Assembly: GCA_022769565.1 (NCBI GenBank)
Contig: JALEJQ010000008.1
Coordinates: forward strand, 15,833 to 79,832
DNA length: 64,000 nucleotides
From: Oscillospiraceae bacterium
Lineage (GTDB): Bacteria > Bacillota > Clostridia > Oscillospirales > Ruminococcaceae
Direction: 5' to 3'
Shown: piece after piece, positions 2,717 through 46,040 of the stretch
Layout: every line of letters begins with the position of its first letter
Position numbering within the stretch: position 1 is the first letter of the stretch
Position numbers and translations under genes: made by a program
Notes under the pieces: generated by a model
Databases searched by the model: none
Seen by the model: the letters and a program-made list of their open reading frames with translations, nothing else
What the model was told of the DNA's origin: nothing

Positions 2717-3550
2717 TTACTCATCTATTTTGACCGCAACCGCCTGAAAGCCGTTTTCCTCGAAGCGGTTAAGGAATGAGCTTTTCATATAGAGTGTTAT
2801 TTCGTCCTTATCGCCGGGGTCCATAAAATAGTAGCAGTTGTTGTCATAACCGCAGAGCACAAGGGTGTGGGAGTTGCCGTACCAGCAGTAGGTCTCGCCG
2901 CTGTCCGTTATCCATTCCGACGGCTTGCGGTAGTTAAAGGGCTTCATATCAACGGTCGCCCAGACTATTACGGGAACGCCCTCGTCTATGAGCTTTTCAA
3001 TATCGGCTGAGTTTATATGCTCCGACAGGGCAAGGGCGGTATAGGACGGATCCTTTTCGGTGAAAAACCTGTTCATCGCCTCCGCAAGAACGGAATCGGA
3101 GCAGCCGTAGCCCCAGCTGTAGGGGTCGCCTGCGAAAACCTTTCTCGGGTCGGGACCGTGGGAATTTCCCGATTCATCATAATAAAAATTATCGTCCCAT
3201 TCAAGATAGTTATCGGTAAAATCGAACTTGTCCGTTTCAAAGCCGAGGTATTGAAGCAGCGCAGCGGCGCATACCGATTCGCAGCCCACGGGCAGCTCGG
3301 GATACTGATTTATCAGCGGAACGTCAATAACTGTCTTGCCGAAAACGGAAACAGGCTTTTCGTAGCCGCTGCCAAGCTCCTCAACGGTGTAGCCGTTATA
3401 AAGGGCGTGAGGGTCTGCGTCAAGTGCTTCGTAGCGCTCCTGCTCCGCCGTTCTTTCGGAGTACAGCGACCATGTACAGAAATAATCGGCGCAGACTGCC
3501 GAAGCCGCAAGGCACAGTCCCAGAGCCGTTACAAGAAGCTTATTGCGCAT
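2717..3550 (-). CDS. secreted C39-like (papain-fold) cysteine peptidase
   Basis: Signal peptide MRNKLLVTALGLCLAASAV. Motif INQYPELPVGCESVCAAALLQYLG followed later by GNSHTLVLCGYD, giving the Q/C/H arrangement of peptidase_C39_2-like domains. Confidence 0.7.
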   Translation of the reverse strand: MRNKLLVTALGLCLAASAVCADYFCTWSLYSERTAEQERYEALDADPHALYNGYTVEELGSGYEKPVSVFGKTVIDVPLINQYPELPVGCESVCAAALLQYLGFETDKFDFTDNYLEWDDNFYYDESGNSHGPDPRKVFAGDPYSWGYGCSDSVLAEAMNRFFTEKDPSYTALALSEHINSADIEKLIDEGVPVIVWATVDMKPFNYRKPSEWITDSGETYCWYGNSHTLVLCGYDNNCYYFMDPGDKDEITLYMKSSFLNRFEENGFQAVAVKIDE

Positions 3551-3629
3551 TTTATCACCACCCGAAATACATTTACACCATTTTACCACAAAAAAATACT
3601 TTTTGCAATATCAAGAAAGGAAGATATAC

Positions 3630-4502
3630 ATGACAGAGCAAATGACAGGTCTTGTCCTTGAGGGCGGAACGTTCAGAGGAATATTCTCCGCAGGCGTTAT
3701 GGACGCATTTATTGAAGCAGGAGTGGAGTTTCCCTACGTTGTAGGCGTTTCCGCAGGCATTTCCAACGGAGTTTCCTACATTTCAAAGCAGTTCGGCAGA
3801 AATATTGACATTCTTGAAAACTACCGCCTTGACAAGCGTTATATCGGCGCAGGAAACTTTCTCAAATGCAAAAGCTGCTTTGGTCTTGACTTTGTTTTCG
3901 GGGATATTCCCAATGAGCTTATCCCCTTTGACTACGATACATATCACAGGTACAAGGGCAGAGTAAGGGTAGGCGTTACCAACGCAGACACAGGCAGCGC
4001 AGAGTTTATGGACGGGCTTACGGACAGCGAAAACTGGCAGTTTCTCCGTGCCACCTGCGCCATTCCGGGACTTTTTCCGCCCATTGAGATAAACGACGGA
4101 CACTATTACGACGGCGGACTTGCCTGCCCGATTGCGGTAACTCAGGCGATAAAGGACGGCTGCACGAAAAACGTTATTATCCTTACCCAGCCTGAGGGCT
4201 TTGTAAAAAAATGCGGCAAGGGCAACGTTGTTATGAGCCAGCTTATAAAGCATAAATTCCCCAAGGTGGAGATAATGCTTCTTGCCCGTCACAGGATATA
4301 CAACAGGCAGGTGAAGTTCTGCGAGGAGCTTGAACGCAGGGGCAAGGCGCTGATAATCCGCCCCAAGGAACGTCTTGACAGCATGGAAAAGGACACTGCG
4401 AAGCTCCGTGCAACGTGGCAGAGCGGCTACGACGAAGCTATGGGCAGAATGGACGAGATAAAAGCCTTCATCGGGGAAGAATATCATATGTACGAAGTTT
4501 GA
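3630..4502 (+). CDS. patatin-like phospholipase
   Basis: Oxyanion motif GGTFRG and nucleophile elbow GVSAG near the N-terminus; a later DGG-type Asp (YYDGGL). Confidence 0.85.
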   Translation: MTEQMTGLVLEGGTFRGIFSAGVMDAFIEAGVEFPYVVGVSAGISNGVSYISKQFGRNIDILENYRLDKRYIGAGNFLKCKSCFGLDFVFGDIPNELIPFDYDTYHRYKGRVRVGVTNADTGSAEFMDGLTDSENWQFLRATCAIPGLFPPIEINDGHYYDGGLACPIAVTQAIKDGCTKNVIILTQPEGFVKKCGKGNVVMSQLIKHKFPKVEIMLLARHRIYNRQVKFCEELERRGKALIIRPKERLDSMEKDTAKLRATWQSGYDEAMGRMDEIKAFIGEEYHMYEV

Positions 4503-4692
4503 AGTGTTAAGAGTGGAGAGTGAAGTTTTTACTGAATTTGGAATGTGAAGAGTGGAAAGTGGAATTATGGGCGCTTTGCTAAATGAATAATGAATAATTT
4601 TGGTGTTCGCTTCGCTCACGAATTTTAAAATACATCGCCACAGGCGACACCTTAATTATTCATTCTTCACTATTCACTATTCATTATTCATT
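4501..4692. repeat. heptamer-array inverted-repeat element (X family), copy X1
   Basis: Purine-rich 7-nt tandem array at 4501-4567. Then an inverted repeat: AAATGAATAATGAATAATT, core GGTGTTCGCTTCGCTCACGAATTTTAAAATACATCGCCACAGGCGACACC, and a TTAATTATTCATT... arm. Confidence 0.8.
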
Positions 4693-4758
4693 TTTTATGA
4701 ATATTTCCTCCTCCGTAAGCGCAGAATAAATAAAAATAAGCGCAAACGGGAGGACGTT

Positions 4759-5793: not shown

Positions 5794-5819
5794 AAAGCCG
5801 TTTTTCTGCCCAAAACCTT

Positions 5820-5888
5820 GCGCTTCGCTAAATGAATAGTGAATAATTATGGTGTTCACTTCGCTCACTTAATTATTCACTTTTCATT
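5820..5888. repeat. X-family inverted repeat, short copy X2
   Basis: AAATGAATAGTGAATAATTA, truncated core GGTGTTCACTTCGCTCAC, then TTAATTATTCACTTTTCATT. Confidence 0.75.
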
Positions 5889-7017: not shown

Positions 7018-7044
7018 GGTAGCGCTTCGCTCACGGATTTTAAA
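7018..7044. repeat. X-family core fragment
   Basis: GGTAGCGCTTCGCTCACGGATTTTAAA matches the conserved core of X1, X4 and X5 but has no arms. Confidence 0.5.
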
Positions 7045-44751: not shown

Positions 44752-44842
44752 AACTATACAAACTCCCTGTTTTTTCATCAAATTTCAAACACAAATTTCA
44801 TTATAGCATCTTACGCTCTTTCAGGCAATATACAAAATGACG

Positions 44843-45047
44843 AAAAAAGTTTGAAGTGTGAAGAGTGGAGAGTGAAGTTTTTTTCGGAATGTGAAATGTG
44901 GAAAGTTGAAAGTGGAATTAATGTGTCGGCTTCGCCGATGATTTTAAAATCCGCGAGCGCAGCGAACACCATAATTCTTCATTCCACTTTTCACTTTCCA
45001 CATTCAATAAAACTCCACTCTCCACTCTCCACTCTTCAAACTTTTTT
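44843..45047. repeat. X-family heptamer-array inverted repeat, copy X4
   Basis: About 75-nt arms built from degenerate 7-nt units (GAAGTGT GAAGAGT GGAGAGT ... GGAATGT GAAATGT GGAAAGT) and their complements, flanking the conserved core in reverse orientation. Confidence 0.85.
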
Positions 45048-45201
45048 AAGTTATCAACAAAAATTGTTATGTAAATTTGTATGAAAAAATATTGTTTTCA
45101 CTTGCAATTTATGTGCAAGTGTGCTATAATTTTTAAATAAACAACGGAAACCGTAATGCATATGGAGCATAAAACGGAAACCGGCTGAGGGAGGCTTTTG
45201 T

Positions 45202-45825: not shown

Positions 45826-46040
45826 AATGAATAGAGATTAGTGGATAGTGAATAATTAAGGTATCGCCTGCGGCAATGTATTTAAGGCAACACCGTACAA
45901 AGACCGCCTTTCGGATTTGTGCGGTATTTCCTTAAGATCCGTGAGCGCAGCGAACACCTTAATTATTCATTTTTCATTATTCATTATTCATTTAGCGCAG
46001 CACCTATGTTCATTTAGCCAAACGCCTCTAATCTCTAATT
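45826..46040. repeat. X-family inverted repeat with nested insertion, copy X5
   Basis: AATGAAT/AGTGAAT-type arms. The core is split at its ATTTTAAAAT centre by an extra hairpin (ACCGTACAAA...TTTGTGCGGT). Confidence 0.8.

Follow-up and report, generated by a model that had tools for sequence, protein, structure and literature searches.

The window analysed in this work was a 64,000-nt stretch of the genome of an Oscillospiraceae bacterium (contig C41, positions 15833-79832, of G000, the genome under study, a short-read metagenome-assembled genome (MAG) of 2.57 Mb in 109 contigs with 45% GC). At 44843-45047 of this window, flanked by azlC and a cytidylate-kinase-like gene, which are oriented divergently, lies a 205-nt palindrome, here called X4, which is a non-coding, non-autonomous copy from a modular system of palindromic repeats that is old, has heptamer arms, and resembles repetitive extragenic palindromic (REP) sequences and bacterial interspersed mosaic elements (BIME). 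No open reading frame (ORF) of the S23p type, the protein family whose genes are enclosed by the same kinds of arms elsewhere, was found inside X4. The element comprised the following parts (window coordinates):

44843-45047, no strand: whole X4 element, established from sequence, folding and census; its insertion was limited to G000 and its sister species
44843-44884, plus strand: outer left arm, family A, AAAAAAGTTTG GAAGTGT GAAGAGT GGAGAGT GAAG followed by a T run
44886-44921, plus strand: inner left arm, family B, GGAATGT GAAATGT GGAAAGT TGAAAGT GGAATTAA
44922-44940, minus strand: H mini-hairpin, reversed, reading CATCGGC-GAA-GCCGACACA on the minus strand, its stem closed by a C-GNA-G triloop
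44941-44951, no strand: AT-rich linker at the apex, ATTTTAAAATC, forming the dyad centre of X4
44952-44970, minus strand: K core, reversed, reading GGTGTTCGCTGCGCTCGCG on the minus strand, with a GCGCAGC mini-hairpin on the plus strand
44971-45005, minus strand: inner right arm, family b (complement of B)
45006-45047, minus strand: outer right arm, family a (complement of A)
44881-45015, no strand: segment inverted with respect to the orthologue in the sister species G003 (B arm, core and b arm), approximately 135 bp

X4 was organized as a two-tier palindrome with the module string A B k/h b a. The outer arms (44843-44884 and 45006-45047; 42 nt) were 90% complementary and the inner ones (44895-44921 and 44978-45004; 27 nt) 89% complementary. 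As RNA, the element was predicted to fold into a single long hairpin (-99.7 kcal/mol, z -13.2), and the predicted DNA fold reached -58.5 kcal/mol (z -11.3); in both cases none of 200 shuffled sequences was as good. Identity between positions seven nucleotides apart (lag-7 identity) amounted to 0.637 in the X4 arms vs. 0.326 after shuffling (z 7.6, a level reached by none of 500 shuffles), and to 0.586 vs. 0.30 (z around 60) over 160 arms of 80 elements. Echoes appeared in this larger set at lags 14 and 21, every other lag being unraised. The original prediction, made from the sequence letters, had described a 205-nt palindrome with heptamer arms and a strict 7-nt periodicity; sequence, coordinates, arms and fold all agreed with that description, and the autocorrelation run here was significant both in X4 and over the 160 arms.

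For the genome-wide survey six modules were defined: four arm families (A, GTTTGAAGTGTGAAGAGTGGAGAGTGAAG; B, GGAAAGT/TGAAAGT...GGAATTAT; E, GGAATTC/GGAATGC; and C, GCGCTTCGCTAAATGAAT/AGTGAAT...AATTAA) and two mini-hairpins (K, GGTGTTCGCTKCGCTCACG; and H, CATCGCC-GCA-GGCGATACC). The census combined module BLAST with 15-mers, a 12-mer k-mer census being discarded as too noisy. Module BLAST yielded 538 non-overlapping matches in 189 clusters, in line with the proposal of a dispersed repeat family that is not a plain REP hairpin. Clusters were intergenic (11.5% overlap with crude ORFs vs. 87% coding genome-wide), and 15-mers occurring at least five times, which derived from several repeat families, made up ~3.4% of the genome. 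In 80 of 84 two-armed loci, every forward arm, with the purine-rich strand on top, stood to the left of every reverse arm, and this strand always ran 5' to 3' toward the centre. In the nesting order A or E was outermost, B came next and C lay innermost, beside the centre; left and right arms could come from different families (e.g., C K H b e), and arrays typically comprised 4-5 heptamer units. The sister units AATGAAT/AGTGAAT, which had been assigned to other copies, were real, although they turned out to be modules of one nested system of fixed order and not separate families. The conserved core was real as well, yet it is only one of many centres, since 107 of the 189 clusters contained neither K nor H. 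Many A..a, B..b and E..e hairpins enclosed unrelated sequences of 14-120 nt, among them other small repeats and apparent native terminators, and copy length was not uniform across the family. Arms within one element were 84% complementary. Copy pairs in the genome were mostly 70-88% identical, with only three pairs above 90%, thus indicating that the copies are old.

The further copies noted in the window, including the bare core fragment, were all found to exist:

4494-4700, no strand: X1, sister copy, module string A B C K H c c
5819-5888, no strand: X2, short copy, C K c
7023-7044, plus strand: isolated partial K core, GCGCTTCGCTCACGGATTTTAAA (the bare fragment)
45826-46040, no strand: X5, C h ... 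k c, starting 13 nt past the stop of the cytidylate-kinase-like gene; centre inverted with respect to G003

Five contig ends (C15:21839, C39:38681, C106:18, C36:112, and C47:157) fell in K-core elements or in an adjoining GGGGCGCACAxTGTGCGCCCC hairpin repeat. The repeats thus break the assembly and the family census is an undercount. Two more small hairpin repeats, TGTAGGGGACGGGTCTCCCGTCCC and GTAGGGGCGCACAATGTGCGCCCCTAC, often occupied the centres of heptamer hairpins (e.g., C24:25638-25725, the C57:5302 region, and C5:6011-6132), and a palindromic TACTAAT MITE (a transposable element of the miniature inverted-repeat type) was likewise present in such centres (C4:1438 and C100:7180), which points to nesting at hairpin apices.

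With up to three mismatches allowed, the core pattern occurred at 44 genome sites over both strands, as expected from the claim that it exists in both orientations, and H was found at about 60 sites. K always preceded H (KH 14, hk 13, HK never) and agreed at 12 of 19 positions with the complement of H; the centre can thus be described as a diverged inverted doublet of one mini-hairpin. One strand of K contains GCGAAGC or GCGCAGC, a C-GNA-G triloop stem beside a tandem G.A pair, and H has a perfect stem of 5-6 bp with a GNA triloop. The covariation of the H stem between X1 (TCGCC/GGCGA) and X4 (TCGGC/GCCGA) noticed earlier was confirmed, and a third compensated variant (ATTGCC/GGCAAT) was found besides. 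Orientation relative to genes was random (K/H counts of 16 vs. 12 and 18 vs. 22). The GTAG or CGTC tetranucleotide carried at one unit end by REP superfamilies (PMC3733652) was absent next to the stem, on either strand, from both K (GGTG...CACG) and H (CATC...TACC). Rfam returned only sub-threshold matches to eukaryotic microRNA (miRNA) and internal ribosome entry site (IRES) families, which are spurious for any long hairpin, and no match came from plasmid and phage collections.

Among 40 relatives, K was present only in G000 (42 sites) and in the congener G003 (45 sites), a sister species with 91-97% identity in syntenic blocks and a genome 86% complete; B arms also occurred in G010 and G011, and E arrays were abundant in nine congeners. 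Seven other congeners displayed a short spacer between azlC and the kinase-like gene without the element, and the alignment of five such congeners presented a gap after the conserved ACAAAATGACGAAA. Relative to the empty site, the boundaries of X4 were an A run and a T run belonging to the palindrome. No direct duplication was seen at this site, where the flanks were only ~75% conserved. At the level of sequence, these alignments show that X4 entered the azlC/kinase-like spacer in the common ancestor of G000 and the sister species.

Around 22 orthologous pairs of G000 and G003 had the element at the same site in nearly all cases, with differing interiors. The inner 135 nt of X4 (B arm, core, b arm) matched those of G003 at 130 of 135 positions when inverted vs. 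102 of 129 in direct orientation, thus placing the breakpoints at or in the A arms. The comparison of both species shows an apparent inversion of these 135 bp between the A arms after insertion. Centres were flipped at X4, X5, C16:35969, C16:42605, C18:9804 and probably C18:7007, which represents around half of the informative pairs, the flips being observed between species only. G000 and G003 further differed by an arm indel of 35 nt (5 x 7), by indels of entire modules with ATAATTCC at their borders, and, in a B..b hairpin, by whether the apex held a K/H-like centre. As read from these pairs, the family is shown to change by slippage in multiples of 7 nt, module indels at ATAATTCC microhomology, and gain or loss of the apex centre. 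The element of G003 contig C129, orthologous to G000:C16:40680-41027, carried an extra 686 nt between two K-containing halves.

The same arms also enclosed a gene. G000 harboured a single S23p/four-helix-bundle gene (PF05635/TIGR02436; C102:23373-23732), located in the argC-argJ interval with E arrays to its left and an e array to its right, the gene stop overlapping the array. The left end of the cassette (C102:23140-23762) was partly tandem-duplicated, the order being E array, 19-nt leader, ~45 codons of a degraded S23p 5' end, second E array, leader, and intact gene. Every congener S23p gene inspected was wrapped by heptamer arrays, namely A/a in G003, B/b in G011, E/e in G015 and G013 at the same argC-argJ site, and other heptamers in G009, G008, and G006. 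This indicated that arm families A, B, and E each enclose S23p somewhere in the genus. S23p was the only specific gene between matching arms, and no transposase gene carrying these arm ends was found. Other genes between arms were discarded as cargo, being ordinary GNAT-type genes, each beside its own hairpin. In orthologous S23p cassettes, the units were AAGAATT in G009 and CGGAATT in G000, the switch affecting all units of both arms, which indicates concerted evolution of the arrays. The argC-argJ orthologue of G013 (C3:217565-217879) contained an in-frame stop while being 95% identical to the intact G015 copy, and is thus a recent pseudogene.

S23p was 48-53% identical to homologues of gammaproteobacterial symbionts, wrapped there in AATTTTG/GAGTTTT units, and it matched the pentameric structure PDB 2RLD (E 8e-39). 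Flanking inverted repeats were present at 51 of 67 usable metagenomic S23p loci vs. 13 in a mismatched control, and tandem arrays at 16 of the 67, with 7 as the only period detected. One rumen Ruminococcus MAG (L211) displayed an S23p ORF with K(+) on one side and K(-) on the other, all enclosed by GAGGAAT arms, the first unit of which provides the stop codon of the upstream gene; this layout, seen once, would be the one expected of a gene-bearing parent of the K-H elements.

The exact 19-mer K was present in more than 116 stretches among the matches listed (one genome per species scanned), about a dozen of which were chance occurrences in GC-rich coding DNA. Carriers among the matches listed were rumen Ruminococcus/Oscillospiraceae MAGs, Ca. 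Thiodiazotropha, Sedimenticolaceae, Nitrospinota, Bacteroidales, Ignavibacteria (with tandem K arrays), Stieleria, and Roseibium. Many of these outside sites had lineage-specific heptamers upstream (AGTGAAT, GAGGAAT/TAGGAAT, AATTTTG, AGTTTTG, ACAATGC, and TTAGCTA) and, downstream, a second GNA-loop mini-hairpin followed by the complementary array. Lag-7 identity was at least 0.6 in the 39 nt upstream of 36 of 128 outside K sites, and at a threshold of 0.7 lag 7 beat all other lags 20 to 1; a rule that heptamers always precede K was too strong, only those 36 sites reaching the lower threshold. Of five K-bearing genomes of other lineages, three had an S23p match and four a Y1_Tnp match, thus neither gene is a universal partner of K. 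In Ignavibacteria-type MAG contigs (L015 and L103), K itself was tandem, in 21-22-nt units between direct arrays (GGGTTACGC... and TATGTCTTCGACGG), unlike the hairpins.

Two promoter-like sites were recognized at the sides of X4:

44800-44828, minus strand: promoter-like site for azlC, TTGCCT-17-TATAAT, TG extended, 15 nt left of X4
45102-45130, plus strand: promoter-like site for the cytidylate-kinase-like gene, TTGCAA-17-TATAAT, TG extended, right of X4

X4 sits between the -35 boxes of these divergent sites, both of which point away from it, and being upstream of both it lies probably outside the two mRNAs; no promoter-like site was present inside its flipped segment. Because of this position, processing by RNase III or as double-stranded RNA is unlikely for X4 itself, and it is plausible for copies that would lie inside transcripts, such as X5. 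Across the family, ends facing a gene 3' end were 15 nt or less from the stop codon in 45% of cases, and ends facing a start in 13%. Single arrays adjoining a stop were in sense (purine-rich) orientation in 32 cases vs. 4 in antisense, and the first A-arm unit of X1 contained the TGA stop codon of the ORF upstream (3543-4502). At one pair of convergent genes, most congeners had the E array that follows the stop of the left gene, also where synteny was different, which indicated that arrays are long-standing features of gene ends; where two genes converge, inverted arms around the shared terminator result. Arm mismatch types were symmetric and G.U-compatible mismatches were not enriched on the sense strand (57 vs. 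65). Selection on the arms at the RNA level was rejected on the absence of this G.U asymmetry.

The interpretation that we favour, with moderate confidence, is that the family is propagated by copying based on hairpins or single strands, together with slippage and recombination between arms, S23p being the element's own protein. X4 would be a gene-less form of the S23p cassette, a hairpin-wrapped unit like the S23p-bearing intervening sequence (IVS) of 23S rRNA, because the same arm families enclose S23p and because in L211 S23p lies between inverted K cores. Spread and upkeep would act on hairpin or single-stranded DNA and would use host recombination and replication slippage, not a classical transposase, and the copy at the azlC/kinase-like locus would be selfish or neutral DNA and not a regulator. 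The original prediction did not extend to the S23p link, inversion through the arms, the rule on stop codons, or the core shared across phyla.

Several observations weigh against this interpretation. X4 has no ORF, the S23p cassette of G000 has neither K nor H, and K was beside S23p in one genome only, with no K within 400 nt of the 67 metagenomic S23p loci and none at 10 other loci; an association of K with S23p as a general rule was rejected on this count of one case vs. none. S23p did not track array abundance, since G002 (99% complete) displayed 263 E-array matches and no S23p match, and no S23p match was obtained in K-bearing Thiodiazotropha and Sedimenticolaceae MAGs. Arms differed while S23p stayed ~81% identical (G009 vs. 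G000), which argues against tight recognition of arms by the protein. The inversions rest on two short-read MAG assemblies. We know of no biochemical role of S23p in DNA mobility. The genome lacked a reverse transcriptase (RVT_1) gene to pair with an Avd-like protein, and a mechanism of this kind was rejected on those grounds. A broader formulation, in which S23p proteins would be dedicated proteins of cross-phylum, transposase-less hairpin elements, is tentative and, in our judgement, rather unlikely. K (GGTGTTCGCTKCGCTCAC, with a GCGAAGC-type DNA hairpin on the opposite strand) and the heptamer arrays would be the cis sites, each subunit of the S23p pentamer would bind one 7-nt unit, and short tandemly repeated repetitive (STRR)-type repeats, heptamer-armed hairpins, and S23p IVS would be three faces of one mobile system.

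The likeness of K and H to REP units raises the alternative that they form a REP doublet (REPIN) made and moved by a REP-associated tyrosine transposase (RAYT), with the heptamer arms being secondary. High copy number (44 and ~60 sites) of short (20-40 nt) intergenic imperfect palindromes, mosaics of oriented modules, and inverted hairpin-forming doublets in fixed arrangement are shared with the REP, BIME, and REPIN of Proteobacteria, as are evolution within the genome, the lack of visible target-site duplication, also expected for HUH transposition, and the position of 45% of 3'-facing ends at 15 nt or less from a stop, as in Escherichia coli REPs. REPINs and RAYTs have been described (PMC3116915 and PMC3333891), and G000 has one intact Y1_Tnp/RAYT-like gene with HUH and Tyr motifs (G000:C71:5204-5716), Y1_Tnp being matched as well in four of the five K-bearing genomes of other lineages. 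Nevertheless, this gene scored 24.5 bits in Pfam and 60 bits against NCBIfam REP_Tyr_transpos (E 2e-16), below the cut-off of 80; it abuts its neighbours, with no K (up to three mismatches) within 1.5 kb. Its homologues (~50% identical, many with in-frame stops) were found in seven other congeners, all K-free, and none was found in G003, with 45 K copies and 86% completeness. Stems made of long arrays of 7-nt units, the missing GTAG/CGTC tag (PMC3733652), the many arm-system loci, a majority, without K or H, and the fact that the gene inside the same ends is S23p and not RAYT also differ from a REPIN-RAYT system. On the whole we regard this origin as unlikely, and the RAYT-like gene was rejected as mobiliser, having no flanking repeats and no co-occurrence with K. 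The original prediction had named a known REP-associated transposase as the finding that would speak against it: such a gene does exist in RAYT-like form, but no repeats flank it, and in relatives the two were not found together. RAYT-like homologues in G002, G007, G010, G013, and G017 (~75% genome identity) had one in-frame TGA each, which could correspond to a shared old pseudogene or to a recoded codon.

The remaining alternatives place the function in the arms or in the transcript. Arrays could be iterated sites for a ring-shaped protein, in the simplest case the homopentamer of S23p, each subunit taking one 7-nt unit, as the strict 7-nt periodicity, the usual 4-5 units, the pentameric state of S23p homologues in crystals (PMC4990558), and the wrapping of S23p genes in arrays with no other period beside them would fit; we consider this quite unlikely, given that neither the various arm families nor close S23p orthologues share the same unit sequences and that arrays are abundant in a genome without detectable S23p. 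Very stable predicted duplexes, copies starting 15 nt or less past stop codons, the 32 to 4 sense bias of single arrays after stops, and the cleavage by RNase III of IVS stems carrying S23p (PMC4990558) are all compatible with an element acting in transcripts, as RNase III site, 3' stabiliser, or terminator/insulator, in the manner of REPs and IVS stems. With X4 upstream of both promoter-like sites, symmetric arm mismatches lacking a sense-strand G.U excess, centres oriented at random relative to genes, and no Rfam match other than spurious miRNA ones, such a role is very unlikely. Finally, it is highly improbable that X4 is a programmed invertible switch, with arms as recombinase sites for phase variation, or a classical MITE, with arms as terminal inverted repeats used by a DDE transposase. 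Centres flipped between sister species at around half of the informative loci, arms that are inverted repeats, and other MITE families in the genome favour these possibilities, whereas no promoter-like site occurred in the flipped segment, the X4 breakpoints were in the arm region and not at a fixed core site, no insertion-site duplication was seen, copy size varied, and no transposase gene had these ends. The iteron- or transposon-end-like nature suggested initially was not upheld either: no transposase carried these ends, no target-site duplication was visible at the one clean empty site, and neither rep nor transposase genes were found at the repeat loci, the copies being dispersed over ~190 spacers.

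The family shares traits with several known systems. Intergenic heptanucleotide arrays of cyanobacteria (STRR) were reportedly described by Mazel et al. in 1990. Heptamer repeats are also documented in Xanthomonas (GGGAATC, with 70-75 convergent pairs and possible stem-loops) and Nostoc (GGGGAYT; PMC4692102), and TAACTGA repeats in Beggiatoaceae (PMC4679880). Tandem 7-nt units in spacers, significant here over many copies, lineage-specific sequences, and variable copy number are common to all of them; in contrast, the units found here are not prone to form G-quadruplexes (G4), and the papers on Xanthomonas, Nostoc, and TAACTGA repeats contain no nested multi-family grammar, mini-hairpin core, arm-mediated inversion, or S23p link. 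In the S23p-bearing 23S rRNA IVS (Coxiella, Leptospira), RNase III cuts a terminal stem of 28 bp (PMC4990558). Gene-bearing cassettes resemble this IVS in having a small S23p ORF within terminal inverted repeats that form a long stem, in their sporadic distribution, and in their suspected mobility. X4 folds as such a long stem and differs by lacking the ORF, which is present in the E-armed G000 cassette, by lying between protein genes and not in rRNA, and by its arms of heptamer arrays; rRNA operons were essentially unassembled in the G000 MAG. Like MITEs (e.g., RUP and Correia), the elements are small palindromic insertions without coding content that some relatives have and others lack; unlike MITEs, they have no defined length, visible target-site duplication, or parent insertion sequence, and their centres are unrelated between copies. 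Invertons also have a segment bounded by inverted repeats that occurs in both orientations, but here the X4 segment contains no promoter-like site, flips were between species, and breakpoints fit general recombination between arms. Iterons and transposon-end arrays differ in that no rep or transposase gene was nearby.

To our knowledge, bacterial 7-base spacer repeats and the S23p genes of 23S rRNA IVS have each gone unexplained for decades. The published literature searched contained no paper linking heptamer arrays to S23p or describing the K sequence, and a full-text search with the core sequence returned unrelated primer matches only. The repeat family physically ties heptamer repeats to S23p, given that the same arms wrap REP-like mini-hairpins, small repeats, and S23p, and its 19-nt core stays unchanged over a range of carriers that extends from rumen Clostridia to gammaproteobacterial symbionts that oxidise sulfur. 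If S23p is indeed the protein of the element, this would define a class of mobile elements without recognisable transposase. For annotation and assembly, it is relevant that the elements fill a large number of spacers, extend over stop codons, cause contig breaks, and can flip; therefore, the 3' ends of genes and the spacing of promoters can change through them.

A repeated AACGGAAACCG motif (AACAACGGAAACCGTAATGC...AAAACGGAAACCGGCTGAGGGAGG), which may be a leader element, was observed at 45133-45200 of the window, in the stretch separating the cytidylate-kinase-like gene's start from its promoter-like site.

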